The notes beneath the pieces are model-generated. The model was given only the letters and a program-made list of their open reading frames with translations. It was not told the DNA's origin and did not search any database. Shown piece by piece: positions 12,439 through 52,001 of a stretch of 64,000 nt of DNA. Position 1 is the first letter of the stretch. Each line of letters starts with the position of its first letter. Position numbers and translations under genes: made by a program. This DNA is from Chlamydiales bacterium (lineage in GTDB: Bacteria; Chlamydiota; Chlamydiia; Chlamydiales; JAAKFR01): assembly GCA_022601535.1 (NCBI GenBank), contig JAJACK010000001.1, positions 724,893-788,892 on the forward strand, read 5' to 3'.

Positions 12439-12492
12439 AAAAAATAGATTAGTCTCTGTTTACATTTGGTCTTAAAAAAATAGAAATGTGAT

Positions 12493-12840
12493 ATGGGAAG
12501 GCAAATTCTAATTATTGATGATGACGAAGATATTACAGAATTGCTCGCATTTCGTCTCACTAAAGAAGGGTATACCGTCACTTGTACTGGAAGTGGTAAG
12601 GGAGCGATTGAAGAGAGCAAAAATGGTGCTTTTGATCTATTTATCTTGGATCGCCTTCTTCCCGATATGCGGGGTGAAGAGATTGCAAAAACCTTAAAAA
12701 GTGCAGAGAAGACAAAAGAAGCTCCTATTCTCTTTATTTCAGGAATCGCTGAAGGAGGGGAAGAAGAGTTTTCAGATCACTTCCTTCTCAAGCCTTATGA
12801 ATGGAAAGATTTAATCTATGCAATAGGCAAGCTGATATGA
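12493..12840 (+). CDS. stand-alone response regulator receiver (CheY-like, no output domain)
   Basis: REC motifs are present: ILIIDDDED, phospho-acceptor FILDRLLPDM, and the conserved Lys in LLKPY. 115 aa, so there is no room for an effector domain. Confidence 0.88.
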   Translation: MGRQILIIDDDEDITELLAFRLTKEGYTVTCTGSGKGAIEESKNGAFDLFILDRLLPDMRGEEIAKTLKSAEKTKEAPILFISGIAEGGEEEFSDHFLLKPYEWKDLIYAIGKLI

Positions 12841-13916: not shown

Positions 13917-13918
13917 AT

Positions 13919-14881
13919 ATGGAATACACAGAAGTTAAAAATATCGTTTCAAAAGTGTGCCGTTTAGGGCTTGGAACATGGTCTATCGGTGGGTGGCTTT
14001 GGGGTGGAACAGATGAAAAGCAGGCGATTGATGCGATTCAATGCGCTCTTGATTTAGGGATCAATCTGATTGATACAGCCCCTGTTTATGGTTTTGGTCT
14101 TGCTGAAGAAATTGTGAGTAAAGCGATTTTAGGTAGACGTGATCAAGTGATTTTAGCGACCAAAGCTGGATTGAGATGGGAGCGTGGTAAAATCATTCGA
14201 GACTCGAGCTCAAAGCGCCTTCTCCAAGAAGTTGAAGATTCATTAAGACGCCTTAATACCGATTATATCGATCTTTATCAGGTACATTGGCCTGACAAAA
14301 CCGTCCCTTTTTTAGAAACGGCTGAAGTGTTGCAAAAATTGCAAGCCCAAGGGAAGATCCGCGCTTTTGGGGTGAGTAATTACTCCGCCGAGATGATGAA
14401 GGAGTTTGGGGAGTGCTCAACACTTCAATCTCCTTACAACATGTTTGAAAGAGAGATCGAAGAAGCAGAGCTCCCCTATTGTAAAGAAAAAGGGATCTCA
14501 ATCCTTGGGTATGGAGCAATCTGTCGTGCTCTTTTATCGGGGAAGATGACAACTAAGAGGGTCTTTGAAGGAGATGACCTAAGAAAAAATGATCCAAAGT
14601 TTATTCAACCTCGGTTCGATTCTTATCTTGCATGTGTGGAAATACTTGCTAGATGGGCAAAAGAGCATTACAATAAGCCGGTGATCGCTCTGGCTATACG
14701 TTATGCATTGGATAAAGGGATTGATATTCCTCTTATTGGATGTCGAAAAAAGGAACAACTCAATTTTCTTGATACTCTTTGGGATTGGAAATTGAGCAAC
14801 GAAGATCTAAGCGAGATCGAAGAAATTTTAAACAGCGTGGCCAACCCTGTTGGTCCAGAATTTATGGCACCAAAAATATGA
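13919..14881 (+). CDS. aldo/keto reductase family oxidoreductase
   Basis: AKR motifs LGTWSIGG, IDTAPVYG, DLYQVHWPD and FGVSNYS. Starts 2 nt after the kinase stop. Confidence 0.9.
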   Translation: MEYTEVKNIVSKVCRLGLGTWSIGGWLWGGTDEKQAIDAIQCALDLGINLIDTAPVYGFGLAEEIVSKAILGRRDQVILATKAGLRWERGKIIRDSSSKRLLQEVEDSLRRLNTDYIDLYQVHWPDKTVPFLETAEVLQKLQAQGKIRAFGVSNYSAEMMKEFGECSTLQSPYNMFEREIEEAELPYCKEKGISILGYGAICRALLSGKMTTKRVFEGDDLRKNDPKFIQPRFDSYLACVEILARWAKEHYNKPVIALAIRYALDKGIDIPLIGCRKKEQLNFLDTLWDWKLSNEDLSEIEEILNSVANPVGPEFMAPKI

Positions 14882-15870
14882 AAAAATCATTTATCACAAA
14901 AGAAAAACTCCCTCTTGTTATTGAACCTGAAAAAAGTACACCAACCTTTGAACAGTTTTTGAAATATGTTGAAGAAAATCGAGAAGAAATTTCTCAGCTA
15001 GTCGTTGATCATGCAGGTGTCTTGTTTCGAGGATTTCCAATCGTAGGAGCGGAAGGGTTTAATGCTGTGATTAAAACACTTAATTTGGGGAAAGCTCTTG
15101 ATTATGTGGGAGGAGATAGTCCTCGTGATAAGGTGAAAGGGAAAGTGTATACTTCAACAGAAGCTCCTCCTTCTCTTAAAATCCCTCTACATAATGAGAT
15201 GAGTTTTATCAAGGACTATCCAAAACATATCTATTTCTACTGCCAAACACCATCTCCTGTTGGAGGAGCGACAATTTTAGGAGATGCCAGACGGATCTAT
15301 GATGGTGTAAAATCTGATGTTCAAAAGCGCTTTACAGAAGGAAAACTTCGGTATGTTTCTAATTATTATGGAAAAAGCATTCTCTTTGATCTGATCAACA
15401 AACTCCAAAGGGGACATAAAACATGGATGGAGGCATTTGAAACAGAAAGCCGTTTGGAAGCTGAAAAACGGTGTGATGCAAATGCTTTTGATTATAAGTG
15501 GAATGGAGACTGGCTTCAAGTTTCCCAAACATGTCCTGCTATTTTAGACCACCCTGTCACAGGTGAACCGACATGGTTTAATCAAGCGCACCTATACGAT
15601 TTTAATCCTAAGTTGATTGGATTTTGGAATTGGATTGGGACCAAATTGATCTACGCCAAGCCAAATACAATCATGCATGAAATTTTCTTTGAAACAGGAG
15701 GAAAAATTCCAAAACAAGATCTCTATCACATTTTAGATGTACTGGATGATCAAACAATCTCCTATCCTTGGCAGGAAGGTGATTTCCTTGTCCTAGACAA
15801 TGTTTTAGCAATGCATGGAAGGGCTCCTTTTGAAGGGAAAAGAAAAATATTAACAGCACTTACTCGATAG
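14878..15870 (+). CDS. TauD/TfdA-family (clavaminate-synthase-like) Fe(II)/2-oxoglutarate dioxygenase
   Basis: The ATG at 14878 overlaps the AKR stop (ATGA). H-x-E facial-triad motif LHNEMSF plus distal DNVLAMHGRAPF. About 330 aa, typical of SyrP/CAS-like hydroxylases. Confidence 0.75.
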   Translation: MKKSFITKEKLPLVIEPEKSTPTFEQFLKYVEENREEISQLVVDHAGVLFRGFPIVGAEGFNAVIKTLNLGKALDYVGGDSPRDKVKGKVYTSTEAPPSLKIPLHNEMSFIKDYPKHIYFYCQTPSPVGGATILGDARRIYDGVKSDVQKRFTEGKLRYVSNYYGKSILFDLINKLQRGHKTWMEAFETESRLEAEKRCDANAFDYKWNGDWLQVSQTCPAILDHPVTGEPTWFNQAHLYDFNPKLIGFWNWIGTKLIYAKPNTIMHEIFFETGGKIPKQDLYHILDVLDDQTISYPWQEGDFLVLDNVLAMHGRAPFEGKRKILTALTR

Positions 15871-15907
15871 CATATAATTTTCTTTTGTGGTAAATTTTTC
15901 CGTATAA

Positions 15908-16201
15908 ATGGATACACCTCCTCCTCCACCTTCTCGTGCTCCATCCCGCCTTGCTTCAACCTCGAGTTTAGCTAGGAATTCAAATTGCTGTTCTCAAATT
16001 TGCACATTCACACTTCTTGCTATTTCAGTGATTGGGACAGTTTGTGGGGTTTTGATCTACCTCTCTTTATCGGGCCAAATCGCACCGATCAATGCATTTT
16101 CTTCGATTCCGATCGCAAGTAGTTACTTAATGATAGGGGGAGGAGCACTTCTCTTTATCCTCTCATCGATCGCACTTGCCTCTATAGCAAATAAATCTTA
16201 A
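15908..16201 (+). CDS. small membrane protein, Inc-like (Pro/Ser-rich N-terminus plus paired hydrophobic segments)
   Basis: 97 aa. N-terminus is MDTPPPPPSRAPSRLASTSS. Then two about 21-aa hydrophobic segments (FTLLAISVIGTVCGVLIYLSL, YLMIGGGALLFILSSIALASI) follow. Confidence 0.5.
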   Translation: MDTPPPPPSRAPSRLASTSSLARNSNCCSQICTFTLLAISVIGTVCGVLIYLSLSGQIAPINAFSSIPIASSYLMIGGGALLFILSSIALASIANKS

Positions 16202-16210
16202 AGTAAAGGC

Positions 16211-17296
16211 ATGTCTGTCGACCTCTACGATCAAACAAATATCGAGACATTGGTTTGGCCAAAGGGAGAGGAGAGTGTTGGAATGCAACACTTTTTTTTG
16301 CCTTTATTGAAAGAAGGGGTGAGCTCATTTGTCTCAAATATTGAAACGACATTCTACCTTCTCAAAGTGGATGATCTTATCTTTCCATTGACTGTCAATG
16401 AAATGGAATATGATAATTCCTATCTTACATCTAATTATTTTTTGATTTCGAGCCGACAAGAAAGGGGATATCAATCCTTTTTCCATCGTGGACTTGTAAC
16501 AGCAGCTGGGGGATTTTTAAAAGGGGTGAAAATCAATCGGTCGGTTCTTGTCAATAATTGGCTGTTAAGTGCGGCTACTTTCCCTCAAATCTCGTTGAAG
16601 CAGCTTAGGCATATGACAGAATTTTTAGTCGACCGTTTTCCATCCCACACATTGATGTTTCGAAACCTCTTCCAAGAGCAACTCCTCCCTTTTCACCACC
16701 TCAAATATGGGATCAATAAGACAAGAGAGGTTTACTGTTATGATCCAGGCTTTGGGCTGGATAAAAAAGCGCGTTACCATCACAGAAGAGATCATCGTTT
16801 AATTTCAAAGCTTGGGTACCACATTTTAAGAGGAGAAGAGCTACAAGGAAAGGAAGAGAGGATCATCGATCTCTACAACCAGATTTATATCAAAAAACAT
16901 ACAAACTATAGTCCACACTACACTGAAAAATTCATCAAGAGTGTGTTTAAAAGCTCTTTTTTCTCGATAACAGCTCTCGAAAAGGAGGGGCAGATCGATG
17001 GAGTTTTCATTTCGTATAGGCGAGATAAAAGCATGAGTGTCCCTTTCTTTGGCTATCAATTAGAGTGTGATTACACGCAACAGGTGTATCGAATGCTCAC
17101 CATCCTTGCAATGGGTGAAGCTAAGCAAAAGGGGCTTTTTCTCAATGATGGTTCTGGGGGTACAGTGACAAAAGCACAGAGGGGAATGAGACCCTTTTCT
17201 GAGTATATTGCTTTCTATGGAAGACATTTAAGTCATATTAGACGAGCATTTTGGGCTCTTGCAGATCATTTGACAACCTCTCCTACCATAAAGTGA
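16211..17296 (+). CDS. hypothetical protein (possibly tandem GNAT/FemAB-like acyl- or aminoacyl-transferase fold; unverified)
   Basis: 361 aa soluble ORF with no antisense competitor of comparable quality. The family call rests on general resemblance only. The 3' end overlaps the convergent DUF3419 gene by 31 nt. Confidence 0.5.
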   Translation: MSVDLYDQTNIETLVWPKGEESVGMQHFFLPLLKEGVSSFVSNIETTFYLLKVDDLIFPLTVNEMEYDNSYLTSNYFLISSRQERGYQSFFHRGLVTAAGGFLKGVKINRSVLVNNWLLSAATFPQISLKQLRHMTEFLVDRFPSHTLMFRNLFQEQLLPFHHLKYGINKTREVYCYDPGFGLDKKARYHHRRDHRLISKLGYHILRGEELQGKEERIIDLYNQIYIKKHTNYSPHYTEKFIKSVFKSSFFSITALEKEGQIDGVFISYRRDKSMSVPFFGYQLECDYTQQVYRMLTILAMGEAKQKGLFLNDGSGGTVTKAQRGMRPFSEYIAFYGRHLSHIRRAFWALADHLTTSPTIK

Positions 17297-18339
17297 TAGA
17301 CAAAGCAATTATCTTCTTGGTTGAGTGTCTCTTCTAGCTTTAGATCCCGCTTGAGATGTTGCTTGAGGTGTTTTGGAACCTCGTAGTCTGTCATAAATTG
17401 TCTGATGCAGAAGCGAGCTCCTGGTTTTGCCACACGGATTGTAGATGTGAGCATCTTTTCAAACGCTTTTTCAGGGATATAGGAAGCGACATCAGAAAGG
17501 GAAAAGCGGTCAAAACTTTCATCAGGAGCTTTTTCAAGGTAAGAGAGAAGATCGATGGTTTCAAATGAAACAGAGTCGAGTTGTTTGATGATTTGAGGAA
17601 TACATTTTTCATGTAGATAGGGGGGGAGAAAATCATGGTCGAATTTCCCTCTTAAAATGAGGTTCATCAATAAGCTCTTTTTTGCAAGAGAAGTGTGGAG
17701 ATAATGGTTGATCCGTTCATGTAAAAATTTGCCGGTATGAAACTCAGCGGCAACATATTTATAGAGACCAGGATCTTTTGAAAAGCGGCGAAAAAGATGA
17801 ACAAATGTAAAAAGGCGTCTCCAGGCTGCTGTATCAAATTCATTTTGAACAAACCGTTTTTGCTCTTCAATGCAGTCGAAGGAAAAAAGGGTTTCTATTT
17901 TTTTTCGTCGGCAAACCTGGGCAAGAGTAGAAGAAACTTTTGCCATTTTTTCGATGGCTCCTTCAAAAAGGACCCCCTTACGCACTTTTAAATGGTTTTT
18001 TTCCCAGAGCTCAAGAGAGTGGGGAGTGAGCTTTCCTTTGAGGCTTTTGTAGTGTTCTAATCGTTTATCCATAGGTTCTAAACCTAAGAACGCAATGTAG
18101 TCGTTGTAATCAAATGTTTTCAAAGCGGCTGCTTTGAGATCAAAAAGAGCATTTTGAATTGGGTTTGCATCGATGGTGACCATCTCCTTGCAAGGAGTTG
18201 AAAGGAGATTTAGAGGACGATCTCCACTTGCTGTTACACAAAGGACACGGTCTTCAGGAGTGATTTGAAGTGCTTTTTGTTCAGTGTTCCAATCTTCATT
18301 TCCAAAGCTATAGCTCAATCGATTATAGAATGTTCCCAT
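17266..18339 (-). CDS. DUF3419 / BtaA-like SAM-dependent 3-amino-3-carboxypropyl transferase family protein
   Basis: N-terminal LSYSFGNEDWNTEQKALQITPEDRVLCVTASGDRPLNLL matches the conserved Y-x-Q-x-W-E-D...AL.I...D.VL.I.SAG block of the BtaA/DUF3419 family. 357 aa. Confidence 0.6.
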   Translation of the reverse strand: MGTFYNRLSYSFGNEDWNTEQKALQITPEDRVLCVTASGDRPLNLLSTPCKEMVTIDANPIQNALFDLKAAALKTFDYNDYIAFLGLEPMDKRLEHYKSLKGKLTPHSLELWEKNHLKVRKGVLFEGAIEKMAKVSSTLAQVCRRKKIETLFSFDCIEEQKRFVQNEFDTAAWRRLFTFVHLFRRFSKDPGLYKYVAAEFHTGKFLHERINHYLHTSLAKKSLLMNLILRGKFDHDFLPPYLHEKCIPQIIKQLDSVSFETIDLLSYLEKAPDESFDRFSLSDVASYIPEKAFEKMLTSTIRVAKPGARFCIRQFMTDYEVPKHLKQHLKRDLKLEETLNQEDNCFVYHFMVGEVVK

Positions 18340-18351
18340 GTGTCCTTTTAG

Positions 18352-19092
18352 TTAAAACCGTGTCAAAAGAGCTAGTCTAGCTCCCACTTGAGTGTATTTA
18401 GTATCTACGTAGTTGAAGGGGAATCCCTCTCTCCCACCATAGTGGCGATACTCAAAGAAAGGGATACAACCAAAACGTAAGCCAAGCCGTGCTTTTGGTA
18501 GAGAAAGAATTAAAGGGACCTCAACTCTTACATTGATCTCCTCATTCATTTGGATAATAACGTTTTCACGGGCAGGGTCTTCTGTCACTTTTGTCTTTGC
18601 TTCTTGCATGAACATCATTTTGAAGTTAACACCCATACTTAGCAGAGTAGAGAAATTGACACCAGATAAAAAGCCAACGGGGATGTAGTTAAATGTATTG
18701 GTAAATTTGAAAGGGATTGGAGTTGGAGATCTAAAATCATTCTCTTCATGAAAATAACCATAACCTGTGAAGAGAGAGAAAAAATGGTCTTCCTCGAAAA
18801 AAGTGTAGCCAATACGCCCCTCATACACTTGATCTGTTAACTCTGAAACAATGCGACGTTGTGCTCCAGAGTGTCCTTTCAAGTTGGCAACACCGTTTAA
18901 ATAATCAGCTCCTAAATAGAGAGGTTTGATTCTATCATAGGTAAGTCGGATACCATTGAACTGTCCATTTTGTTGTGTCCCACCATCACGCATCCGTTTG
19001 ATACGCGAAGTTTCTACACCGACGGAGAGTTGAGCGTAAAGGGGACACGACAAAAGAAGTAGTAGAGAGAGCGCGATTTTCATTTTTTCCAA
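18352..19092 (-). CDS. outer-membrane beta-barrel protein (porin/OMP-like)
   Basis: Signal peptide MKIALSLLLLLSCPLYAQ. Alternating aromatic/hydrophilic beta-strand pattern. Terminal ...ARLALLTRF, where a C-terminal Phe is an OMP signature. Confidence 0.65.
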   Translation of the reverse strand: MEKMKIALSLLLLLSCPLYAQLSVGVETSRIKRMRDGGTQQNGQFNGIRLTYDRIKPLYLGADYLNGVANLKGHSGAQRRIVSELTDQVYEGRIGYTFFEEDHFFSLFTGYGYFHEENDFRSPTPIPFKFTNTFNYIPVGFLSGVNFSTLLSMGVNFKMMFMQEAKTKVTEDPARENVIIQMNEEINVRVEVPLILSLPKARLGLRFGCIPFFEYRHYGGREGFPFNYVDTKYTQVGARLALLTRF

Positions 19093-28743: not shown

Positions 28744-28832
28744 AACTTATTTTTTATAAAGGTAAGTGTGTGGCTTTAAGCTAAGGTAACTTTAGGGTTA
28801 CTTTAGCCGTTAATTTTTTTTTATTTTTTTAG

Positions 28833-30378
<1,546 letters not shown>

Positions 30379-30431
30379 TAAGGACAAGTATGACCAATTT
30401 ATTTGGTCGTAACTAGGTTGGGGTCACACAC

Positions 30432-30459
30432 TGTACTTTGTCTCATTATCACTGTTAAG
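30432..30459 (+). other. 3' strand of 16S rRNA processing helix (in ITS)
   Basis: Reverse complement of 28716-28743 (see the partner feature). Confidence 0.75.
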
Positions 30460-32676
30460 ACGATAAGATCTTGATAGTTTTGTGATAGAAAATCGGCAGT
30501 CCATTTTATCTCAGGACTGCCGTGTTCAAGCTACGAACTCGTAAGAGGACGTAGTTTGAAGGTAAATATACAATTTTACTGACAATAAATGGCGCTTGAA
30601 GAAGCAATTCATTTTTGTCGTGAACTCAAAATGCCAAATTACAGCTTAAGTTGTAGTTTGTATTAATAGTCAGCTTGACAACAAATTTTTGTGGTCAAGC
30701 TACTAAGGGCTGCTGGTGGATGCCTTGGCATCAACAGGCGATGAAGGACGTGATTACCTGCGATAATCTTCGGGGAGCTGGCAAGAAGCTTTGATCCGGA
30801 GGTCTCCGAATGGGGCAACCCAGTGGGATTAATCTCTCACTATCTCATACTGAATACATAGGTATGGGAGGCGATACTCGCTGAACTGAAACATCTCAGT
30901 AAGCGAAGGAAAAGAAATCAAAGAGATTCCCTAAGTAGCGGCGAGCGAAAGGGGAATAGCCCAAACCGGAGTCTTTGACTCCGGGGTTGTAGGACCAGTC
31001 AAAGGACCAACGACCTCTAGCCGAACACTTTTGGAAAACTGGACGACACAGGGTGATAGTCCTGTAGGCGAAAGAGGAAATTGGCAAGATTGGCACCTGA
31101 GTAGGGCCGGACACGTGAAACCCGGTCTGAATCTGGGGAGACCACTCTCCAAGGCTAAATACTCGTTGATGACCGATAGTGAACCAGTACTGTGAAGGAA
31201 AGGCGAAAAGAACCCCTGTTAGGGGAGTGAAATAGAACCTGAAACCAGCAGCTTACAAACGGTCGAAGGCCTATGCCCTTTTTAAGGGAATGGCTGACGG
31301 CGTGCCTTTTGCATGATGAGCCAGGGAGTTACGTTATATGGCAAGGTTAAAGGACTCCGTTCTGAAGCCGAAGCGAAAGCGAGTCTTAATAGGGCGTCTA
31401 GTCATATGGCGTAGACACGAAACCAAGTGAGCTATCCATGACCAGGTTGAAGCAGCGGTAACACGCTGTGGAGGACCGAACCAGTATCTGTTGAAATAGA
31501 TTTGGATGAGTTGTGGATAGGGGTGAAAGGCCAATCAAACTTGGAAATATCTTGTTCTCTCCGAAATAACTTTAGGGTTAGCCTCGAAATTAAGTCTCTG
31601 GGGGTAGAGCACTGGATTCCTGAGGGGGCCTACCGGCCTACCAATGGAAACCAAACTCCGAATACCAGAGATGAGTTCGGGAGATAGACAGTGGGGGATA
31701 AGCTTCATTGTCGAGAGGGGAACAGCCCAGACCGTCGATTAAGGTCCCTAATTCTATGCTAAGTGGGTAAGGTAGTGAAGTTTCTAAGACAGTTGGAATG
31801 TTGGCTTAGAGGCAGCAATCATTTAAAGAGTGCGTAACAGCTCACCAATCGAGAGACTTTGCGCCGATAATATTCGGGACTAAAGCATAGAACCGAAATC
31901 ACGGGTGCATCGCGTAAGCGATGCGCGGTAGGAGAGCGTAGTATGCTGCACTGAAGGTGTACCGTAAGGAGCACTGGAGCGCATACTAGTGAAAATCCAT
32001 GGCATGAGTACACGATAAAGGAGGTGAAAATCCTCCTCGCCGAAAACCTAAGGTTTCCAGGGTAAAGCTCGTCTTCCCTGGGTTAGTCGGCCCCTAAGTC
32101 AAGGCGGAAACGCGTAGACGATGGGAAACAGGTTAAATATTCCTGTACCACCTAAAACTATGGTGATGGGATGACGGAGTATGTGAAGCACGCGGACGAT
32201 TGGAAGTGTCCGTAGCACAGTGAGGCCGGTTGGCAGGCAAATCCACCAACATAAAGCTAGGCTGTGATCAAAGGGAATCTTCGGAGGAACTGATGGTGTG
32301 GAGCTAGGCTTCCAGGAAATAGTCTCTAACCGTTGATGGTGACCGTACCAAAACCGACACAGGTAGGTGAGATGAATATTCTCAGGCGCGCGAGTTAACT
32401 CTCGTTAAGGAACTCGGCAAATTAACCCCGTAACTTCGGGATAAGGGGAGCCATTTGGTGTGATTGTACTTGCTACATGAGCACTAGGTGGTCGCAGAGA
32501 AATGGCCCAGGCGACTGTTTACCAAAAACACAGCACTATGCAAACCCGCGTAAGGGGAAGTATATGGTGTGACGCCTGCCCAATGCCAAAAGGTCAAAGG
32601 GAGGTGTTAGCTTTCGGGCGAAGCACTGAACTCAAGCCCTGGTGAATGGCGGCCGTAACTATAACGGTCCTAAGGT

Positions 32677-33342
<666 letters not shown>

Positions 33343-33411
33343 TCTGGGCGCTGTCTCAACGAGAGTCTCGGTGAAATTGTAGTAGCAGTGAAGATGCTGT
33401 TTACCCACAAA

Positions 33412-33443
<32 letters not shown>

Positions 33444-33730
33444 GTTTGGTATTGGCTTCTGATTTGTCATGTGTAGGATAACCGGGAGACTTTGAAACCC
33501 CTTCGTCAGGGGGGGTGGAGTTACCCTTGAAATACCGGTCTTGACAAGTTGGGAATCTAACACGACCTCCATGAATCTGGAGCGTGGACAATGCCAGATG
33601 GGCAGTTTTACTGGGGCGGTATCCTCCTAAACAGTAACGGAGGAGTCCAAAGCTTACCTCATCATGGTCGGTAATCATGAGTAGAGCGTAAAGGTATAAG
33701 GTAAGTTGACTGTGAGACCTACAAGTCGAT

Positions 33731-33765
<35 letters not shown>

Positions 33766-33787
33766 GAAAGTGGAATCGCCGTCGCTT

Positions 33788-33824
<37 letters not shown>

Positions 33825-33851
33825 GCCACCAAGAGTTCATATCGACGTGGC

Positions 33852-33892
<41 letters not shown>

Positions 33893-34384
33893 TAGAAGGT
33901 CCCAAGGGTTTGGCTGTTCGCCAATTAAAGCGGTACGCGAGCTGGGTTCAAAACGTCGTGAGACAGTTTGGTCCCTATCCTTTGTGGGCGCAGGATATTT
34001 GAGAGGAGCTGCTCCTAGTACGAGAGGACCGGAGTGGACATACCAATGGTGTTCCGGTTGTCCTGCCAAGGGCATAGCCGGGTAGCTACGTATGGAAAGG
34101 ATAAGCGTTGAAAGCATCTAAACGCCAAGCCTCCCTCAAGATCAGATATCCCTAGAGACAACATGAAGAACACGTGTTTAATAGGTTGGGTGTGTAAGCA
34201 CAGCAATGTGTTTAGCTAACCAATACTAATCTGTCCAACGGCTTGACCATTTTTATCATCACTGGTTGCCTTACAGGCAATCGAGGTGAAAAAATGTACA
34301 GAGCTGACTATTATTACGATAAGAATGAAAAGCTCTTTGAGCGTCATTTCTTGTGAGTAAGATTGATCTATCACAAAACTATTT

Positions 34385-34499
34385 TCTTGGTGGCTATGGA
34401 GAAGGGGGTATACCTGATTCCATTCCGAACTCAGAAGTCAAGCCCTTCATCGCCGATGGTACTATACACAAGAGTATGGGAGAGTAGGTCGCTGCCAAG
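34385..34499 (+). rRNA. rrf: 5S ribosomal RNA
   Basis: TCTTGGTGGCTATGGAGAAGGGG...CCGAACTCAGAAGTCAAGC...GGGAGAGTAGGTCGCTGCCAAG shows the canonical 5S helix I pairing and loop motifs. Confidence 0.93.
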
Positions 34500-34509
34500 T
34501 TTTTCTTAC

Positions 34510-45896: not shown

Positions 45897-46472
45897 ATGG
45901 GTCTAAAAGAAACAGTCAAAAGTATGAGAACACTACTTCACACAATTGAAGGAGATCTCGATAAAGTGGAAGCGGGAAATAAAGCGGCAGGCCAAAGAGC
46001 GCGCAAACTCACGATTCAATTTCAAAAAGTTGCAAAAGTCTTTAGAAAAGAATCTGTAAAAAGTTCTGAGATGAAGAAGATTAAAGCAACGAAGAAAAAA
46101 ACAGCAGCAAAAAGAAAGCCTGCAGCTAAGAAGAAGGTCGTTGCTAAGAAGAAAGTGGCTAAGAAGAAAGCAGTAGCAACGAAAAGAAAGGCTCCAGCTA
46201 AGCGAAAAACAGCGACAAAGAGAAAAGCTCCAGTCAAGAAGAAAGTGGCTAAGAAAAAAGCGGTAGCAACGAAAAGAAAGGCTCCAGCTAAGCGAAAAAC
46301 AGCGACAAAAAGAAAAGCTCCAGCAAAGAGAGCAGCTACAAAAAAGCGTTCAACGAAAAGAAAAACAGTGACGAAAAAAAGAGCACCTGTACGTAAAAAG
46401 ACAACAACACGTGCAAAAACTGCTCGACCTAAAAAACGAAGTGCTGCTAAAGTGCAGCGTAAGAAAAGATAA
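45897..46472 (+). CDS. hctA: chlamydial histone H1-like protein Hc1
   Basis: The N-terminal domain KETVKSMRTLLHTIEGDLDKVEAGNKAAGQRARKLTIQFQKVAKVFRKESVK aligns with C. trachomatis Hc1 (ALKDTAKKMTDLLESIQQNLLKAEKGNKAAAQRVR...KIAKVYRKESIK). Lys/Ala-rich tail. GAGGAGGAGG RBS. Confidence 0.92.
   Translation: MGLKETVKSMRTLLHTIEGDLDKVEAGNKAAGQRARKLTIQFQKVAKVFRKESVKSSEMKKIKATKKKTAAKRKPAAKKKVVAKKKVAKKKAVATKRKAPAKRKTATKRKAPVKKKVAKKKAVATKRKAPAKRKTATKRKAPAKRAATKKRSTKRKTVTKKRAPVRKKTTTRAKTARPKKRSAAKVQRKKR
46146..46325. repeat. 2 x 90-bp tandem repeat inside the hctA tail
   Basis: 46146-46235 and 46236-46325 are near-identical. Each encodes KKKVAKKKAVATKRKAPAKRKTATKRKAP[V/A]. Confidence 0.9.
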
Positions 46473-46502
46473 CTGGCTTAGCCAGTGGCACTGTTTTTTT
46501 AA

Positions 46503-46539
46503 GGGAGGTTAATCGCCAGATATGCCTCCCTTTTTTTTT
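46503..46539 (+). terminator. rho-independent terminator after hctA
   Basis: GGGAGG (46503-46508) and CCTCCC (46525-46530) form the stem, followed by T9. A small hairpin CTGGC-TTA-GCCAG lies upstream at 46473-46485. Confidence 0.7.
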
Positions 46540-46566
46540 GCAAGTTTGTGGAGGCAAACAAAATAA

Positions 46567-47733
46567 ATGGACAATGAATTAGATCTGTTGCGTAAGATCG
46601 ATAAGATAGATCTCAAACTCCTCTTTAAATACCAAGAGCACTTTATTCCTCACATTGAGGAGGTGGTCGATGAGTTTTTGGAGTGGTTTTCAAAAAATAC
46701 AACGTGGCTAGCCTATTTTAGAGATAAGGATCTCTTCTCATTTAGAACACGAATTCTTGAATACTGGAAGGCATTTTTTACTCTTCTAAATACCCCCGAT
46801 TTCATTTCATCTCGCCATAGGGTTGGAGATTTGCATGCAACAAACCAAGTTCCTGCAGATGACTACATCTGTGCTTACAATCATATCCTAAACCGTTTTC
46901 TTGAGATTGCTCAAAAGAATAAGGCGATTGCAAAGGAAGATAAAGACCTCCTTTTTCTCTCAATACATAATCGTGGGATCGCTGATATTTGTATCATCTT
47001 GAAAAAATTTGCCCAGTCAGATCGGCGAATGCATAGCCAAATACGGGATCAGCATAGAGAAACCTTAATGGGGATTTTTACACTGACAATCTCAGATGAA
47101 TTTCTAAACCCAATGACTGCTCTGCTCAATAATATTCAACTGACTAAAGAGCTTGTAATGGAAAATGAAAGAGCGGTCAGCCGCCTTGAGAACTCTGAAA
47201 AAATCGTCATGGATTGTGTTCATGTAATCACAACATTACGTCTATTTGCAAAGCAAGATGTCAGTGTTGAAAAATCGATCGCCTCGACCAATTGCATCGA
47301 TGTGCTCGATCAAGTGCTTTTCTTTCTTGAAACGACGTCTAAGGCAGAGGATATCACCATTATAAGAGATTTCGACCCCTCTTCTCCAGCAGTTGAAATG
47401 AAAGTGGCAGACATCCGTTATACCTTTTTAACGCTTTTTGTTTTTGTCATATCACTTGTTGTTCATTGTCCTGTTAGAGAAATCATTGTTTCGGTTAAAC
47501 CTGCCGATGGTGATCTTGAAATTGTCATTAAGGATAGTGGGCAAGGGCTTTCTAAAGAAGATAAAGATCTGGTCTTTACTCCATATTTTTCAAAAGTGAA
47601 ATCTAAAATTAAGGGGGCCGATTTGCTTTTTTGTCGGGAAGTAATTGAGGAAAACGGTGGAAAAATCTCCCTTGAAAGTGTAGAAGGGAATGGAACAACA
47701 TTTACAATCCGTTTCCCTGGGCAAAAGAAATGA
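46567..47733 (+). CDS. globin-coupled-sensor-like protein with degenerate histidine-kinase core (pseudo-kinase)
   Basis: The N-terminal ~150 aa resembles the protoglobin/GCS domain (...VVDEFLEWF...RHRVGDLHATNQVPADDYICAYNHIL, compared with HemAT [20 protein letters not shown]). The DHp box reads ISDEFLNPMTAL, with D where the phospho-His sits in SHELRTPLTAI. The N-box Asn residues are absent. The G1 box DSGQGL is retained. Confidence 0.6.
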   Translation: MDNELDLLRKIDKIDLKLLFKYQEHFIPHIEEVVDEFLEWFSKNTTWLAYFRDKDLFSFRTRILEYWKAFFTLLNTPDFISSRHRVGDLHATNQVPADDYICAYNHILNRFLEIAQKNKAIAKEDKDLLFLSIHNRGIADICIILKKFAQSDRRMHSQIRDQHRETLMGIFTLTISDEFLNPMTALLNNIQLTKELVMENERAVSRLENSEKIVMDCVHVITTLRLFAKQDVSVEKSIASTNCIDVLDQVLFFLETTSKAEDITIIRDFDPSSPAVEMKVADIRYTFLTLFVFVISLVVHCPVREIIVSVKPADGDLEIVIKDSGQGLSKEDKDLVFTPYFSKVKSKIKGADLLFCREVIEENGGKISLESVEGNGTTFTIRFPGQKK

Positions 47734-48110
47734 GCAAAATGATTTTAACAATTGACGATGATCGCGATGTGCAAGAGGTCTTTTCTGCAGTGTTGGCTCA
47801 AGCAGGCTACAGTGTTTGTCAAGCATTGAGCGGTGAAGAAGGTTTAGAAACGTTAAAAACAAACTCGATTGACCTTATTCTTCTCGATCTTCATATGCCA
47901 GGAATGAATGGAATTGACACATTTATTAAAATTAGAGAGATGAATTTAGAGGCACCTGTTTGTATCATCAGTGCTTATGTTGACGGATATCAAGAGGAGT
48001 TACAAAAGCTTACAGAGAGTGGATACCACTTTTCTACTCTAGACAAACCTGTTGGGATGAAGCAACTTCTGTCTAAAGCAGAGACATTAGTAAATGGTAC
48101 AACAACATAG
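47730..48110 (+). CDS. stand-alone response regulator receiver
   Basis: ILTIDDDRD, the phospho-acceptor LILLDLHMPGMNG, and the conserved Lys in LDKP. ATGA overlap with the upstream gene. 126 aa, no output domain. Confidence 0.88.
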   Translation: MSKMILTIDDDRDVQEVFSAVLAQAGYSVCQALSGEEGLETLKTNSIDLILLDLHMPGMNGIDTFIKIREMNLEAPVCIISAYVDGYQEELQKLTESGYHFSTLDKPVGMKQLLSKAETLVNGTTT

Positions 48111-48241
48111 CTTAATGAAAAAAATCGATTCAGCCAATTCAGTGTTTCATTTTTTTCTGGAAGATTGTGAAAAAGTGTGGTAAGAGAAAAGCAAGTGCAT
48201 AGTTGGCCGACGAATTTTATCCTAAAAAAAGGAGAGCTATA

Positions 48242-48685
48242 ATGACAAAGATATTCCCGATTTTGATTGCAGACGATGACCTCGGCGATTGTCAATTGGT
48301 ACAGAAAGCTCTGCAACAAAACAAGGTTTTAAACCCTCTGTTTGTCGTGCATGATGGTATTGAGTTACTCGATTTTCTAAATCAGAGAGGAGAGTATAGT
48401 GATGCAGAAAAATTTCCACCCCCCGGTTTACTTCTTCTAGATCTCAATATGCCGAAGAAGGATGGGCGTGAGGCTTTGAGTGAAATCAAGTCAAACCCCA
48501 AGCTACGCTCCATCCCTGTTGTGATTATGACAAATTCTAGGCAAGAAACAGATATAGCAATCTCGTATGAGCTTGGAGTCAATTCTTATATTGAAAAGCC
48601 CCTGACGTTTGAGTCTTTAGTGGATTTAGTTAAGGCATTAAATGTCTATTGGTTTGAAATTGTAACTCTCCCGAATCATGAGTAA
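48242..48685 (+). CDS. stand-alone response regulator receiver (Rcp1-like)
   Basis: The ATG at 48242 follows GGAG. ILIADDDLGD, LLLLDLNMPKKDG, VVIMTNS and the Lys in IEKP. Resembles phytochrome-associated single-domain regulators. Confidence 0.85.
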   Translation: MTKIFPILIADDDLGDCQLVQKALQQNKVLNPLFVVHDGIELLDFLNQRGEYSDAEKFPPPGLLLLDLNMPKKDGREALSEIKSNPKLRSIPVVIMTNSRQETDIAISYELGVNSYIEKPLTFESLVDLVKALNVYWFEIVTLPNHE

Positions 48686-49040
48686 AAAAATAATTGTTAT
48701 CGATGATGATGAAGATGTCTCTTTGCTTCTTTCTTTCCGCTTAAATAATGAGGGATATACTGTTATCACTGCAAGCACTGGGAAGAAAGGTTTGGAAAAA
48801 TTGGCAGATGACTCATTTAGCCTTATTTTATTAGACAAGAATCTCCCTGATATAAATGGTCTTGAGCTTGCAAAAACAATTAAATCAGATCCAAAAATCT
48901 CTAATCTTCCGATCATCATTATTTCGGGTTTTAGAAAACAGCCCGAAGATGAAATTGCAGAAGCTTTTTTACTCAAGCCGTACGAGTGGAATGAGCTGTC
49001 AAGCTTGATAAAAGAACTTATTTCGGAAAAGAAAAGTTAA
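48678..49040 (+). CDS. stand-alone response regulator receiver (paralog of 12493-12840)
   Basis: IIVIDDDEDVSLLLSFRL, LILLDKNLPDING and FLLKPYEWNEL. Same architecture and C-terminal motif as the 12493 receiver. Confidence 0.88.
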   Translation: MSKKIIVIDDDEDVSLLLSFRLNNEGYTVITASTGKKGLEKLADDSFSLILLDKNLPDINGLELAKTIKSDPKISNLPIIIISGFRKQPEDEIAEAFLLKPYEWNELSSLIKELISEKKS

Positions 49041-50118
49041 AAGCAGTCCCTTCTCCAAGTTCACTTTGAACATTGAGCGTCCCATGATGAAGTTCGATCA
49101 ACTCTTTTGCAATGGCAAGTCCTAAGCCAGAACCTTTGACCCCCGTTTGCATAGATTTTTTTCCAAACTGTTTAAACGATTCAAATAGGTGGGGAAGGTC
49201 ATCAGGAGCAATCCCCGGCCCTGTATCAGCAACAGAACACTCAATACGATCTTTTTGGTCTGAAACATTAATTGTCACTTCTCCTGTTTCGGTAAATTTA
49301 AGAGCATTGCCGAGAAGATTCGTGAAAATTTGAATGATTCTTAAACGGTCGCAGTTGAGTTGTACACGTTCTGAATTTACAACTAATTTAATTCCTTTTT
49401 TAGCAAAAGGGCTTTCATACGCTTTTGCAAGCTCTGCAATCAACTCTTCAAGTTCAACAACTTCAAAATTGAGCTCCATTTGTCCCGCTTCAATTTTAGT
49501 CACATCAAGCAAGTCATCGAGAAGTATTCTCAGTCGATCAATCCCATTTTGTGAAATAGAGAGCATGTTTTTTTGCTGGTCATTCAAAGCTCCAGCACTT
49601 CCATCTAAAACACACATGATCCCTTCTTTTATATAGGTCAATGGAGATCGAATTTCATGGGAAACCATCGAAACAAAATCGGATTTTATTTTACTCAAAT
49701 GTTGGAGAGCAAGTTCTTGTTGCTTTCGATCAATTGCGTAGTGGATCACTCGTTTGATCAATCCAGGAGAAATTTCATCTTTTGTGAGAAATCCGTGAAC
49801 CCCTAAATCAGAAAGTTTGGAAATAATTAAATCGTCTTCAAGGCCTGTTAGGATAATCACAGGAAGTTCAGGCTTTAACGCTTTTATCTTCAGAACAACT
49901 TCTGTCTCTTTTGCATCGGGGAGATTTAAATCTGTAAGAATGATATCTAAATCATTCTCTTTAACAATTTTGACAGCCTCTTCTAAGCTTTCAGCTGTCT
50001 TGATCGAGTAGAGATTTGTGATCAAAGAGAACTGTTTTTTTATCAAAAAAAGATCGCTTGGATCGTCCTCTATCAGGAGTAGGGTTATTTTTTTGCTATT
50101 ATTTGTCATTTTCCCCAA
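49018..50118 (-). CDS. hybrid protein: N-terminal receiver domain plus HisKA/HATPase histidine kinase
   Basis: REC region (LLLIEDDPSD, IILTDLNLPD), then the H-box VSHEIRSPL, N-box NLLGNALKF, DTGPGI and GSGLGLAIAKELIELHHG. Confidence 0.9.
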   Translation of the reverse strand: MGKMTNNSKKITLLLIEDDPSDLFLIKKQFSLITNLYSIKTAESLEEAVKIVKENDLDIILTDLNLPDAKETEVVLKIKALKPELPVIILTGLEDDLIISKLSDLGVHGFLTKDEISPGLIKRVIHYAIDRKQQELALQHLSKIKSDFVSMVSHEIRSPLTYIKEGIMCVLDGSAGALNDQQKNMLSISQNGIDRLRILLDDLLDVTKIEAGQMELNFEVVELEELIAELAKAYESPFAKKGIKLVVNSERVQLNCDRLRIIQIFTNLLGNALKFTETGEVTINVSDQKDRIECSVADTGPGIAPDDLPHLFESFKQFGKKSMQTGVKGSGLGLAIAKELIELHHGTLNVQSELGEGTAFNFSFPK

Positions 50119-50180
50119 AAAAATGAATGTAAAAAATTTTAAGTAATATGTAAATTCATTTTCATAGCAAAAGGTGTTTT

Positions 50181-52001
50181 ATGGCGGATATGGAAAATAA
50201 ATCAGATTTTTTAACAATGTTCAACGCAGTTCCAGCTTTGGTCTTACTCTTAGACTCTCAAGGAAATATTATCTCTATCAGTCAAAAGGTCATTGATTTT
50301 TTAGGATATACGTTAGAAGAAGTGCTTGGGAAAAACTTGAGCAGCTTGTTTTCAGGAGATGATAAAGGTTATAGCTTTGAAAAAATAGTGGGGAATAACC
50401 AGCAAAATCAGCAGTACAGTTGTTCGGATAAAAAGGGCAACAATAAGCTTGTAAAGATGGAATTGTCTTCAATTGAATTAGAAGGAGAGGGGCGGTTTAT
50501 TGCGTCACTTTCCACTGCTGATGAACCTTTTGAGGATAAGTTAACATTTGTCAAAATACTCAACGCGGCGCCAAATGCAATGGTATTGGTCGATGAGAAA
50601 GGGGAGATTGTTTTTGCAAATGACAAGCTAGAAGAGCTTTTTGGCTATACAAAAGAAGAGATGATTGGCAAAAAGGTTGAAGTTCTCCTCCCCGAAAATA
50701 TTCGAGAGAAGCATGTTGGATTGAGAGATGCATATATTTCTCAAAATCCAACCACACGGATGATGGGAGAAGGGAGAGAGCTTTTTGGGAAAAGTAAAAC
50801 AGGAAAACAGATTCCAGTAGAAATTGGGCTTGGCCCGACAACCATCAATGATAAGCCTTATGTCATTGCAACAATCGTAGATATCACTGAGCGTAAGCAG
50901 CGGCAAGAACTTTTTCAAAAAGCAATTGAAGCTTCTCCAACAGCGATGTTGATGGTCAATCAAAGTGGAGTTATTGTGTTTAGCAATGCAAGGGTGACAC
51001 AGATGTTTGGTTACGATCGTTCAGAGCTTATTGGACAACCAATTGAAATGCTTCTTCCCGAGAGCTTAAAGAAAAAACATGTTGGATTAAGAGATGGTTA
51101 CATTGCACGGCCAGAGCCACGTCAAATGGGGATGGGGCGAGATCTTTTTGGAATACATAAGTTTGGATACGATGTTCCAGTTGAAATTGGCTTGAACCCG
51201 CTAAAAATCGGTGATGAAATGCATGTGATTGCGGGAATTATAGATATTTCCCAACGAAAACAGCAAAATCAAAAAATAGACTCGATGATCAAAGAGTTAG
51301 AACGTTCGAATAAAGAGTTAGAAGAGTTTGCTTATGTCGCTTCTCACGATCTCCAAGAGCCGATTCGGAAAGTTCAATCTTTTGGAGATCTTTTACTCAA
51401 AGAGTATGGAGATAGGCTTGACGGTGAAGCAAAAGAGTATATAAAACATATGAGCAGTTCGATTTTAAGGATGCGTAGATTGATCAATGATCTTCTTGCC
51501 TTTTCTCGTTTATCAACACAGACAAAGGAATTTACCTCTACAGACCTCAATTTAGTGCTCACCAATGTGTTGTCTGATTTAGAAGAGAAAATCAAAACAG
51601 CACACGCAGAGATCGAAGCAGATCAATTGATCACAATTGATGCGGATGAAACACAGATGCATCAACTCTTCCAAAACTTCATAACCAATGCACTCAAATT
51701 TCATAAGGCCGATGTAAATCCAGTGATAAAAATTCGTGGCCGTGTCGAAGATGAATATTACGTGATCGACTTTAAAGATAATGGGATTGGCTTTGAAATG
51801 GAGTTTGTGAAAAAAATATTTACGATTTTTCAACGCCTCAATTCAAAAGAAGCGTACGAAGGGACTGGGATTGGCCTTGCCATGTGTAAAAAAATTGTTG
51901 AGAGACATGAAGGGCAAATTACAGTATTGAGTGAAGTGGGTGAGGGAATAATCTTTACCTTGAAATTGCCGATCAAACAAAGAGCTGAAAACAACTCTTA
52001 A
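50181..52001 (+). CDS. triple-PAS sensor histidine kinase
   Basis: Three PAS-like repeats, each ending ...GK/GR.LFG..K.G..[IV]PVEIGL. H-box ASHDLQEPIRKV. N/G boxes NFITNALKF, DNGIGF and GTGIGLAMCKKIVERHEG. Confidence 0.9.
   Translation: MADMENKSDFLTMFNAVPALVLLLDSQGNIISISQKVIDFLGYTLEEVLGKNLSSLFSGDDKGYSFEKIVGNNQQNQQYSCSDKKGNNKLVKMELSSIELEGEGRFIASLSTADEPFEDKLTFVKILNAAPNAMVLVDEKGEIVFANDKLEELFGYTKEEMIGKKVEVLLPENIREKHVGLRDAYISQNPTTRMMGEGRELFGKSKTGKQIPVEIGLGPTTINDKPYVIATIVDITERKQRQELFQKAIEASPTAMLMVNQSGVIVFSNARVTQMFGYDRSELIGQPIEMLLPESLKKKHVGLRDGYIARPEPRQMGMGRDLFGIHKFGYDVPVEIGLNPLKIGDEMHVIAGIIDISQRKQQNQKIDSMIKELERSNKELEEFAYVASHDLQEPIRKVQSFGDLLLKEYGDRLDGEAKEYIKHMSSSILRMRRLINDLLAFSRLSTQTKEFTSTDLNLVLTNVLSDLEEKIKTAHAEIEADQLITIDADETQMHQLFQNFITNALKFHKADVNPVIKIRGRVEDEYYVIDFKDNGIGFEMEFVKKIFTIFQRLNSKEAYEGTGIGLAMCKKIVERHEGQITVLSEVGEGIIFTLKLPIKQRAENNS

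Follow-up and report, generated by a model that had tools for sequence, protein, structure and literature searches.

We analyzed a stretch of 64,000 nucleotides (nt) from the genome of a Chlamydiales bacterium (the window), and in particular a cluster of two-component signaling genes at positions 46567–52001 (the island). This bacterium, known from a Haliclona oculata metagenome, belongs to the environmental, sponge-associated chlamydiae and not to the pathogenic Chlamydiaceae. The open reading frame (ORF) listing confirmed six adjacent ORFs in the island, which encode three kinase-type proteins and three stand-alone receivers (Table 1). We designated their products P1–P6, and those of a second gene pair at 12493–13916 as P7 and P8. 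The genes, coordinates, and strands given in an earlier reading of this DNA (the original prediction) were all borne out by this check, and Pfam searches with all six proteins reproduced its domain inventory.

Table 1. Positions in the window of the island genes, the P7/P8 pair, and other features mentioned in the text (aa, amino acids).
Feature	Position (nt)	Strand	Basis or remark
P1, predicted globin-coupled pseudo-histidine-kinase, 388 aa	46567–47733	+	Pfam Protoglobin, HisKA below cut-off, partial HATPase_c
P2, stand-alone receiver, 126 aa	47730–48110	+	Pfam Response_reg 79.7 bits, aa 5–117
P3, Rcp1/RcpA/AgR-type stand-alone receiver, 147 aa	48242–48685	+	Pfam Response_reg, PDB phmmer
P4, short stand-alone receiver, 120 aa	48678–49040	+	Pfam REC 67.6 bits, aa 5–111
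P5, REC-HisKA-HATPase_c, 366 or 363 aa	49018–50118	-	Pfam
P5–P6 divergent intergenic region, 62 nt, AT-rich	50119–50180	.	Sequence reading
Inverted repeat in the P5–P6 region	50122–50161		8-nt perfect arms, 24-nt spacing
P6, soluble sensor kinase, 606 aa, three PAS + HisKA + HATPase_c	50181–52001	+	Pfam
P6, PAS2	50547–50900		
P6, PAS3	50913–51275		
P7, stand-alone receiver, 115 aa, outside the island	12493–12840	+	P4 paralogue
P8, PAS histidine kinase, 371 aa, outside the island	12801–13916	+	Paralogue of the P6 PAS3-kinase part
Aldo/keto reductase and TauD-family dioxygenase genes	13919–15870		Directly downstream of P8
rRNA operon	28829–34500		
23S rRNA gene	30693–34250		
Group I catalytic intron in the 23S rRNA gene	32644–33283		Rfam RF00028, 61.7 bits
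Hc1-like gene	45897–46472		
Periodic repeats in the Hc1-like gene	46067–46390		
GC-rich hairpin and T-run	about 46500–46540		By eye

The overlaps named in the original prediction were read directly from the sequence. P1 and P2 are joined by an ATGA overlap at 47730, P3 and P4 share 8 nt (48678–48685), and the convergent P4 and P5 share 23 nt (49018–49040); P2 and P3 are separated by a gap of 131 nt. Two starts deserve comment. P5 may begin at a TTG at 50118 (366 aa) or at an ATG three codons downstream, which is the choice of gene callers (363 aa), and the ATG of P3 at 48242 sits within a longer ORF with a TTG start at 48203. The divergent region between P5 and P6 should hold the promoters of both genes. 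It carries the inverted repeat AAATGAAT / ATTCATTT, which may serve as an operator or may have arisen by chance in this AT-rich sequence. Promoter-like hexamers in this region were not enriched relative to shuffled sequences, and the overall counts of promoters and terminators did not exceed those of shuffled controls. By eye, we recognized a GC-rich hairpin with nine consecutive T after it (AAGGGAGG ... CCTCCCTTTTTTTTT) just 3' of the gene for an Hc1-like histone; about 30 nt separate it from P1. This structure probably serves as the terminator of Hc1, in which case P1 needs its own very short promoter region or read-through. The terminator scanner overlooked this hairpin because its loop is longer than 8 nt.

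The original prediction stated that none of the six proteins carries a helix-turn-helix (HTH), enzymatic, or other output domain, and this statement holds. In P2, P3, and P4, the Response_reg domain spans nearly the entire protein and leaves no space for a further domain. Pfam detected no DNA-binding, enzymatic, or Hpt domain in the six proteins. Seven shadow ORFs inside the island gave no Pfam match at all, and therefore the island conceals no Hpt or output domain. In the window as a whole, a census with Pfam and phmmer found no REC-HTH protein, and the phmmer search of all ORFs of at least 60 aa found no REC, histidine kinase, PAS, or globin protein beyond P1–P8. None of these eight proteins reached a family cut-off in NCBIfam; the matches were generic kinase and receiver models without a named orthologue. 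All five receiver domains (P2, P3, P4, the receiver of P5, and P7) retain the acidic pocket, the phospho-acceptor Asp, the Thr/Ser, and the Lys.

Three known types of system were considered and rejected. A classical His-Asp-His-Asp phosphorelay, one of the forms suggested originally, or an Rcs-like system is ruled out by the lack of an Hpt domain in the island ORFs and by the N-terminal rather than C-terminal position of the receiver in P5. A chemotaxis-like module is ruled out because no CheA, CheW, or MCP domain was found in the six proteins or the shadow ORFs, and the kinase-type ORFs of the window are all of the HisKA type. An anti-phage defense system is ruled out as well, since PADLOC gave just partial, domain-level matches to REC and ATPase domains (18–40 bits).

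P1 joins a globin to a degenerate kinase half. Pfam places a Protoglobin domain (PF11563) at residues ~10–132 with 49.8 bits against a cut-off of 25, and the remainder gives a sub-threshold HisKA match (19.3 bits) and a partial HATPase_c match (50.6 bits). The best PDB match of the globin is that of the Vibrio stressosome protein RsbR (7o0i, E = 2e-9), and it was the sole match at E-values up to 10 in a library that presumably includes the solved AfGcHK globin. The predicted proximal His lies in the sequence GDLHA, which aligns with GEIHA of 7o0i. The kinase half was compared with the 149 nearest kinase cores. The phospho-acceptor His, present in 99% of these relatives, is replaced by Asp177 in P1 (codon 47095–47097). 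The first and second Asn of the N-box (94% and 99%) are replaced by Thr289 and Phe293, and the first and second Gly of the G2 box (95% and 99%) by Ile348 and Asp352. These losses agree with the original description of this kinase as not intact. P1 does not have the competent core of the globin-coupled histidine kinases (GcHKs) of the AfGcHK/NmpU type, having lost the H-box His, the N-box, and the G2 box and kept the G1 box (D323, G325, and G327). The alignments indicate that the F-box and an E178-x-x-N181-P182 motif are also retained, and P1 has a DHp-like helix pair. In the AlphaFold model (AF2), the ATPase (CA) domain has predicted local distance difference test (pLDDT) scores above 90, so its fold is preserved. 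The N-terminal globin half is modeled as all-helical with low confidence, because homologues to give alignment depth are wanting.

A search of 5.8 billion clustered proteins and an exhaustive search of 1.84 billion representatives yielded no full-length relative of P1. All other matches span just residues ~145–388 with identities of at most 31%, and none of the 10 nearest kinase-core relatives of similar length has a globin at its N-terminus, which is instead REC, PAS, or unassigned. At the level of motifs, P1 is an orphan globin-coupled pseudokinase that would be unable to autophosphorylate. The pattern of loss and retention, with fold residues, G1 box, and E-x-x-N-P kept, fits a repurposed pseudokinase rather than random decay. 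In HisKA kinases, the E-x-x-N motif supports phosphatase activity.

P6 is a kinase with three PAS domains, of which PAS2 and PAS3 found their best PDB matches in the heme domains of FixL and DosP/EcDOS (E = 8e-16 and 3e-12, respectively). Among solved structures, the two domains match solely heme-binding PAS domains, namely those of FixL from Bradyrhizobium and Sinorhizobium and of DosP/EcDOS. His178 and Arg199 in PAS2 and His300 and Arg320 in PAS3 align with the His of the FixL sequence RSRHDSY and the Arg of its GIGR sequence, which we take to be the proximal His200 and Arg220 of BjFixL. In 26 members of the P6 family of similar length, the two His residues are kept in 26 and 24 members and the two Arg residues in 19 and 24. 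PAS1 is of a non-heme type, as neither the heme His nor the Arg is conserved in its alignment with FixL. The H-box of P6 reads SHDLQEP, and its HisKA and HATPase_c domains are intact. PAS3 and the kinase part align with positions 120–483 of the NCBIfam FixL model. The score of P6 against this equivalog is 164 bits for a cut-off of 850, and no FixJ-type DNA-binding partner is encoded in the window. The nearest relatives of P6 are three-PAS kinases of ~600–645 aa with 35–47% identity from Cytophagales, Gemmatimonadota, Undibacterium, Polyangiales, and unlabeled metagenomes; none is labeled chlamydial. In two genomes with a P6 homologue, the kinase gene is followed by that of a stand-alone receiver with a 4-nt overlap.

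P8 shares 40% identity with the PAS3-kinase part of P6. Its PAS domain is FixL-like and retains the equivalents of the heme His and Arg, and its gene overlaps that of P7 by 40 nt. P6 and P8 are thus predicted, from their sequences, to be heme-based sensors, and with PAS2, PAS3, and the P1 globin the island itself holds three predicted heme sensors. These likely sense oxygen (O2), nitric oxide (NO), carbon monoxide (CO), or the redox state. The original prediction had recorded the receiver P7, which is indeed intact, and had the kinase types right, but it overlooked P8 and the heme-PAS nature of both P6 and P8. Directly downstream of P8 are genes for an aldo/keto reductase and a TauD-family dioxygenase. 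The tauD gene has been reported as a sponge-symbiont trait of Ca. Sororchlamydiaceae (PMC9666466), and its presence beside P7/P8 is a tentative hint that the source genome belongs to this family.

Among the stand-alone receivers, P2 and P4 are generic CheY-like proteins. P2 has its phospho-acceptor at Asp53, its nearest solved relatives include TrrA, and the ATGA overlap couples its translation to that of P1. P4 and P7 are paralogues with 47% identity. P3 is clearly a receiver of the Rcp1/RcpA/RcpB family: the PDB search with phmmer returned Rcp1 (1i3c, E = 6e-36), RcpA (1k68) and RcpB (1k66) (E = 1e-33 to 1e-32), and 4zyl (E = 9e-19), the last of which we take to be the structure of RPA3017. 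Single-domain receivers are an established class of proteins that act as allosteric effectors, shuttles, or sinks (PMC5964349).

P5 consists of a receiver domain (residues 14–123), a HisKA domain (145–212, 46.9 bits), and a HATPase_c domain (257–365), according to Pfam. Its H, N, G1, and G2 boxes are all intact, with SHEIRSPL as the H-box. Full-length homologues with 35–42% identity are widespread in metagenomes, and none is labeled chlamydial. We sampled five of them for gene context (loci L023, L024, L025, and L026 and the ENA contig ERZ27296333). The REC-histidine kinase (REC-HK) gene is followed in L023 by a receiver of 124 aa. In L024, the order is a Cache-PAS kinase with the H-box SHDLKEP, the REC-HK, and receivers of 120 and 124 aa. 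L025 encodes a receiver of 120 aa, a HAMP-containing kinase, a receiver of 159 aa, the REC-HK, and a receiver of 122 aa. The REC-HK is preceded in L026 by a CHASE-PAS kinase and a receiver of 150 aa, and in ERZ27296333 by a large ORF and a receiver of 145 aa. Hence all five homologues sit in similar clusters with stand-alone receivers. Receivers of the size of P3 (145–159 aa) precede the REC-HK in L025, L026, and ERZ27296333, and of the receivers in the window, P4 gives the best match to those 3' of the REC-HK in L023 and L024. Because the sampled neighborhoods repeat these parts, the set of sensor kinase, Rcp-sized receiver, REC-kinase, and small receiver is a recurring bacterial module. P6, P3, P5, and P4 represent it here, with their genes in a rearranged order. 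The original prediction treated the lack of an output as an anomaly. This view does not survive the comparison, as the five clusters have stand-alone receivers and the characterized BphP1/AgR/ExsG/ExsF system has the same make-up.

The same neighborhoods bear on a different explanation, in which the six genes are three or four independent pairs (P1/P2, P6/P3, and P5/P4), each with its own targets, that have gathered in a variable hot-spot. Homologues of P6 are commonly found as simple pairs of a kinase and a stand-alone receiver, and those of P5 occur as pairs of a REC-HK and a receiver. The island is also divided into at least three or four transcription units, given the 131-nt gap between P2 and P3 and the location of P5 on the opposite strand, and the corresponding gap between TrmA and Hc1 in related genomes (described below) holds different lineage-specific genes. 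However, a REC-HK by construction needs an upstream kinase. A large sensor kinase or ORF lies upstream of the REC-HK in four of the five loci, with an Rcp-sized receiver between them in L025, L026, and ERZ27296333. Moreover, three characterized systems with these parts are integrated, and the heme-sensor theme common to P1, P6, and P8 argues for a functional unit. We therefore regard a collection of independent pairs as rather unlikely.

The flanks of the island are chlamydial and comprise genes for the Hc1-like histone, a TPR protein, ExbBD, TrmA, YajC, and HtpG. P1 is also present on contigs of JAHZIS (GCA_022599615.1) and of several Logan assemblies of related runs, with identical gene order and both flank junctions. 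An assembly chimera is unlikely because this order and both chlamydial junctions recur in several independent assemblies. Contigs from several samples encode island proteins of identical sequence. The assembly JAHZIS represents the Haliclona oculata O_S4.2 metagenome of a study on sponge-associated chlamydiae, and two-component systems are not mentioned in the main text of that study (PMC9666466).

With HtpG as the anchor, we retrieved sixteen reference-genome loci (best identity, 80%), of which the closest are all Chlamydiales metagenome-assembled genomes (MAGs). Six of these (L006, L007, L008, L011, L014, and L016), whose sequences cover the side in question, were used to count absence at the syntenic locus; L005 was left out because its contig ends before the locus. 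YajC and Hc1 are found beside HtpG in all six, TrmA was detected in five, and the TPR gene is present in the four whose contigs reach that far. No tblastn match to any island protein was obtained at the syntenic locus in any of the six relatives. Between TrmA and Hc1, the relatives have a gap of variable size (46 nt to 2.4 kb). Three unrelated ORFs of 272, 285, and 108 aa for coiled-coil or membrane proteins occupy this gap in L014, and in L006, it measures about 950 nt without a sizeable ORF. Since the relatives keep the backbone genes but not the island at this position, and since the gap is variable, the island represents an insertion specific to this lineage, at a variable site between Hc1 and TrmA. 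L014 (region 11800–18500; the corresponding region of L006 is 13350–14300) also has extra ORFs between HtpG and YajC and a 400-aa ORF between YajC and TrmA. L005 (CAMAUB010000066.1) is labeled as a Chlamydia trachomatis MAG, a label that is probably wrong; its HtpG is the closest to that of the present genome, with 80% identity. The Hc1-like gene next to the island ends in a Lys/Ala-rich tail of imperfect 18-nt and 90-nt periodic repeats, which differs in length among relatives (191 aa in the present genome, as against 150 aa in L006 and 144 aa in L014). In another part of the window, the 23S rRNA gene of the rRNA operon contains a group I catalytic intron; an intron of this kind in 23S rRNA is a known trait of Simkania.

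The nearest homologues of the island parts are non-chlamydial, from Bacteroidota, Gemmatimonadota, Omnitrophota, and others, with 35–47% identity. Among the 5.8 billion proteins, no homologue of P1, P5, or P6 exceeds 50% identity. The GC content of the island genes lies 0.8–3.4 standard deviations below that of 38 backbone genes, and their relative synonymous codon usage (RSCU) distance of 0.625 (vs. 0.354 ± 0.061) is farther than that of any of 500 backbone subsets, a contrast that is exaggerated because the subsets were drawn from the reference set itself. The GC content at third codon positions (GC3) does not differ from that of the backbone. As evidence of transfer, composition is suggestive only. 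A GC3 at the host level implies long residence, and the data as a whole suggest an old, largely ameliorated acquisition.

Another possibility is that the island is the eroding residue of a horizontal transfer and now has little function or none, in which case P1 would mark the visible onset of decay in the reduced genome of an intracellular bacterium. Five catalytic residues that are nearly invariant have been lost from P1, the island is absent at the locus in relatives and has no output component encoded nearby, and no cis promoter signal rises above chance. Nevertheless, none of the six frames is interrupted, the tight overlaps between them are typical of operons that are being maintained, and P5, P6, and the five receiver domains keep every catalytic residue. 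P1 itself keeps its fold residues, the G1 box, and E-x-x-N-P, with the confidently modeled ATPase domain noted above. Together with the ameliorated GC3 and the identity of the protein sequences across samples, these features leave decay as a highly improbable explanation.

Our preferred reading, made by analogy, takes the island as a horizontally acquired, lineage-specific, multi-component two-component cascade, which probably reports intracellular O2, NO, CO, or redox state via heme sensors. We assign it a probability of about 0.55, which applies to the overall class assignment and is lower for any individual arrow of the following scheme. Heme ligation or redox changes in PAS2 and PAS3 would set the autokinase activity of P6. 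Phosphoryl groups on P6 would be drained to P3, acting as a sink or a dimerizing adaptor, and would also be passed to the receiver domain of P5. The phosphorylated receiver would then switch the P5 kinase, probably by inhibiting it, so that P5 would serve as a signal inverter. Phosphorylated P5 would in turn phosphorylate P4 and possibly P2 and P7. The small receivers may act by protein-protein contact or relay phosphate to a regulator encoded elsewhere. P8 and P7 would provide a parallel heme-PAS input. Because of its translational coupling to P2 and its retained E-x-x-N motif, P1 would most likely be a heme-controlled phosphatase or docking partner for P2, or else a DivL-like, reverse-signaling modulator of P5 or P6.

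P5 might also serve a regulator encoded elsewhere. For either route, the NtrC-like CtcC is a natural candidate for this regulator, since NmpS (discussed below) feeds an NtrC-like regulator and the CtcBC system is conserved in chlamydiae. A more far-reaching proposal can be built on this candidate. In it, P1 would represent a sensor type not described before, namely a pseudokinase with a heme-globin and with Asp in place of the phospho-acceptor His. DivL-like in reverse, P1 would read the phosphorylation of P2 and/or a gas ligand and allosterically control the intact kinases P5 and P6. Via P5, O2 fluctuations in the sponge would be coupled to CtcC, sigma-54, and the developmental cycle. If true, an acquired environmental input would have been wired into a core chlamydial program. 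We consider this very unlikely.

Several points weigh against the cascade reading. The wiring rests on analogy and on conserved gene neighborhoods, and the gene order of the island differs from that of the sampled homologous clusters, in addition to its division into several transcription units. The absence of the island in relatives refers to the syntenic locus and not to whole genomes. No direct or inverted repeats, tRNA, insertion sequence (IS), or other mobile-element remnants flank the island, and the long repeat families that were found all lie inside the Hc1 gene; the host-like GC3 and the inflated RSCU contrast belong here too. As for sensing, P1 has a Leu at the position that aligns with the Tyr of FYDW in the Vibrio RsbR globin, and therefore O2 may not be the ligand of P1, or heme is perhaps not bound. 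The P1 globin also shows no detectable sequence link to the AfGcHK and NmpU globins.

The original prediction proposed an output-less phosphorelay or partner-switch-type network. In its full form, this would be a novel, chlamydia-specific network that governs something other than transcription, the developmental cycle for example. The absence of output domains and the intact stand-alone receivers are in line with it. In addition, the only detectable solved relative of the P1 globin belongs to a stressosome protein, which is a component of partner switching, and Chlamydiae use an Rsb partner-switching module. Against this stand the missing Hpt domain, which excludes a classical phosphorelay, and the lack of any STAS, PP2C, or RsbW-type (anti-sigma) component in the island or the window, which deprives the partner-switch idea of its parts. 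The components are not chlamydia-specific, as their nearest relatives show, and a set of genes that is missing at the locus in related chlamydiae cannot control a conserved chlamydial process. There is little likelihood, in our judgment, that such a network is encoded here.

The cascade reading has to be seen against what is known of the phylum. Histidine-kinase signaling is sparse in Chlamydiae (PMC4989314), and in a census of two-component systems, the phylum was among the poorest in such proteins and lacked kinase-regulator hybrids (PMC4558063). An early globin census found Parachlamydia to be the sole globin carrier among the chlamydial genomes then available (PMC1457004). Four kinase-type proteins and five receiver domains within 64 kb, with three or four predicted heme sensors, are therefore unusual for the phylum. 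The original prediction was right in this respect, as the literature and the absence of the island from the syntenic locus of the six relatives agree. Its baseline, the CtcB/CtcC repertoire of pathogenic Chlamydiaceae, was the wrong comparison for an environmental sponge-associated host; the repertoire found here does fit the larger, transfer-prone genomes of environmental chlamydiae. What is new here is the orphan globin pseudokinase and the tandem heme-PAS input, while all components belong to known families. Modules of this type typically lack an output domain, and the current understanding is not overturned.

Chlamydiae are a standard illustration of how far a signaling repertoire can be reduced. 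An intact, multi-kinase, probably heme-based cascade from outside the phylum would mean that environmental, animal-associated chlamydiae can regain sophisticated sensing. Sponge tissue alternates between oxic and anoxic states as pumping starts and stops, and therefore a gas or redox sensor is ecologically sensible. The island would offer a compact natural example of a circuit of sensor kinase, sink receiver, REC-kinase inverter, and small receiver with a new input, and P1 is a possible model for the repurposing of kinase folds.

A close architectural parallel is the branched BphP1/AgR/ExsG/ExsF system, which was studied in Rhizobium NT-26 and Agrobacterium. There, BphP1 transfers phosphate to AgR, an Rcp1-like receiver, and to Asp62 of ExsG, which is a REC-HWE kinase (PMC3899027). 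ExsG phosphorylates the small receiver ExsF, and its phosphorylated receiver domain inhibits its own kinase, which makes ExsG an 'inversion element'; DNA is bound by no protein of this set of four (PMC3899027, Wojnowska et al. 2013). In the island, P6 is likewise a soluble sensor kinase, P3 (147 aa) resembles AgR (17 kDa), P5 resembles ExsG, and P4 (120 aa) resembles ExsF (13.6 kDa), a likeness that is one of architecture, with sequence compared only for P3 against Rcp-family structures. The original prediction had named a common, already characterized module of a chemotaxis-like or Rcs-like kind as a finding that would count against it. This has come true in part, as the module is of a characterized type, that of BphP1/AgR/ExsG/ExsF, but of neither kind named. 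Two differences must be added to the points listed above against the cascade. BphP1 is a light-sensing bacteriophytochrome (PAS-GAF-PHY), whereas P6 has solely PAS domains as sensors, two of them of the tandem heme-PAS type, without GAF, PHY, or a globin. The kinase core of ExsG, a hexamer-forming protein, is of the HWE type, and that of P5 is of the classic HisKA/HATPase_c type. The island also has P1 and P2 in addition to the parts of this system.

Heme-based gas input is found in the oxygen-responsive NmpRSTU system of Myxococcus xanthus and Anaeromyxobacter, in which the protoglobin kinase NmpU phosphorylates NmpS and the receiver-only NmpT, a likely sink (PMC11841059, McAllister et al. 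2025). NmpS (REC-HisKA-CA) phosphorylates the NtrC-like NmpR under limiting oxygen; the genes are transcribed in the order nmpU, nmpT, nmpS, and the two kinases act reciprocally (PMC11841059). The order of GcHK, REC-only protein, and REC-HK corresponds to P1, P2–P4, and P5. However, NmpU is an active kinase, unlike P1 with its lost His, N-box, and G2 box, and sequence comparison detects no similarity between the P1 globin and that of AfGcHK, whose structure is solved. NmpT carries its two receivers on a single polypeptide, in contrast to the three separate single receivers of the island. The Nmp system ends in an NtrC-like regulator encoded nearby; none is encoded in the window, and the island adds P6.

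In the Lhf system of Rhodopseudomonas palustris, the Rcp-type LhfD/RPA3017 is a phosphate sink for BphP2 and BphP3 (PMC6879726, Fixen et al. 2019). LhfE (REC + kinase), which requires its His, functions downstream, and the system has LhfA (REC-HTH) as its output (PMC6879726). The island shares the combination of sensor kinase, Rcp-type single-domain receiver, and REC-HK. In contrast to the island, the Lhf cluster encodes its own REC-HTH output, its sensors are phytochromes, and LhfE is redox-sensitive via Cys.

For individual proteins, two further comparisons apply. PAS2 and PAS3 of P6 and the PAS domain of P8 are most similar to the heme-PAS domains of FixL, the O2-sensing kinase of rhizobia, and of DosP/EcDOS. 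Unlike FixL, P6 has two tandem heme-PAS domains and an extra N-terminal PAS domain, an SHDLQEP H-box, and no FixJ-type partner. For P1, the comparison is with DivL of Caulobacter, a protein with a histidine-kinase fold and a replaced phospho-acceptor that works with the single-domain receiver DivK, with the direction of signaling reversed (PMC4211667, Childers et al. 2014). Such pseudo-histidine kinases are established devices of reverse signaling (PMC4211667). P1 similarly lacks the phospho-acceptor His and is coupled to a stand-alone receiver, P2; beyond the common kinase fold, no homology between P1 and DivL was found. DivL has PAS sensors and an otherwise recognizable ATPase domain. At the position of the His, it carries a Tyr, whereas P1 carries an Asp, has a globin as its sensor, and has lost the N-box and G2 box as well.

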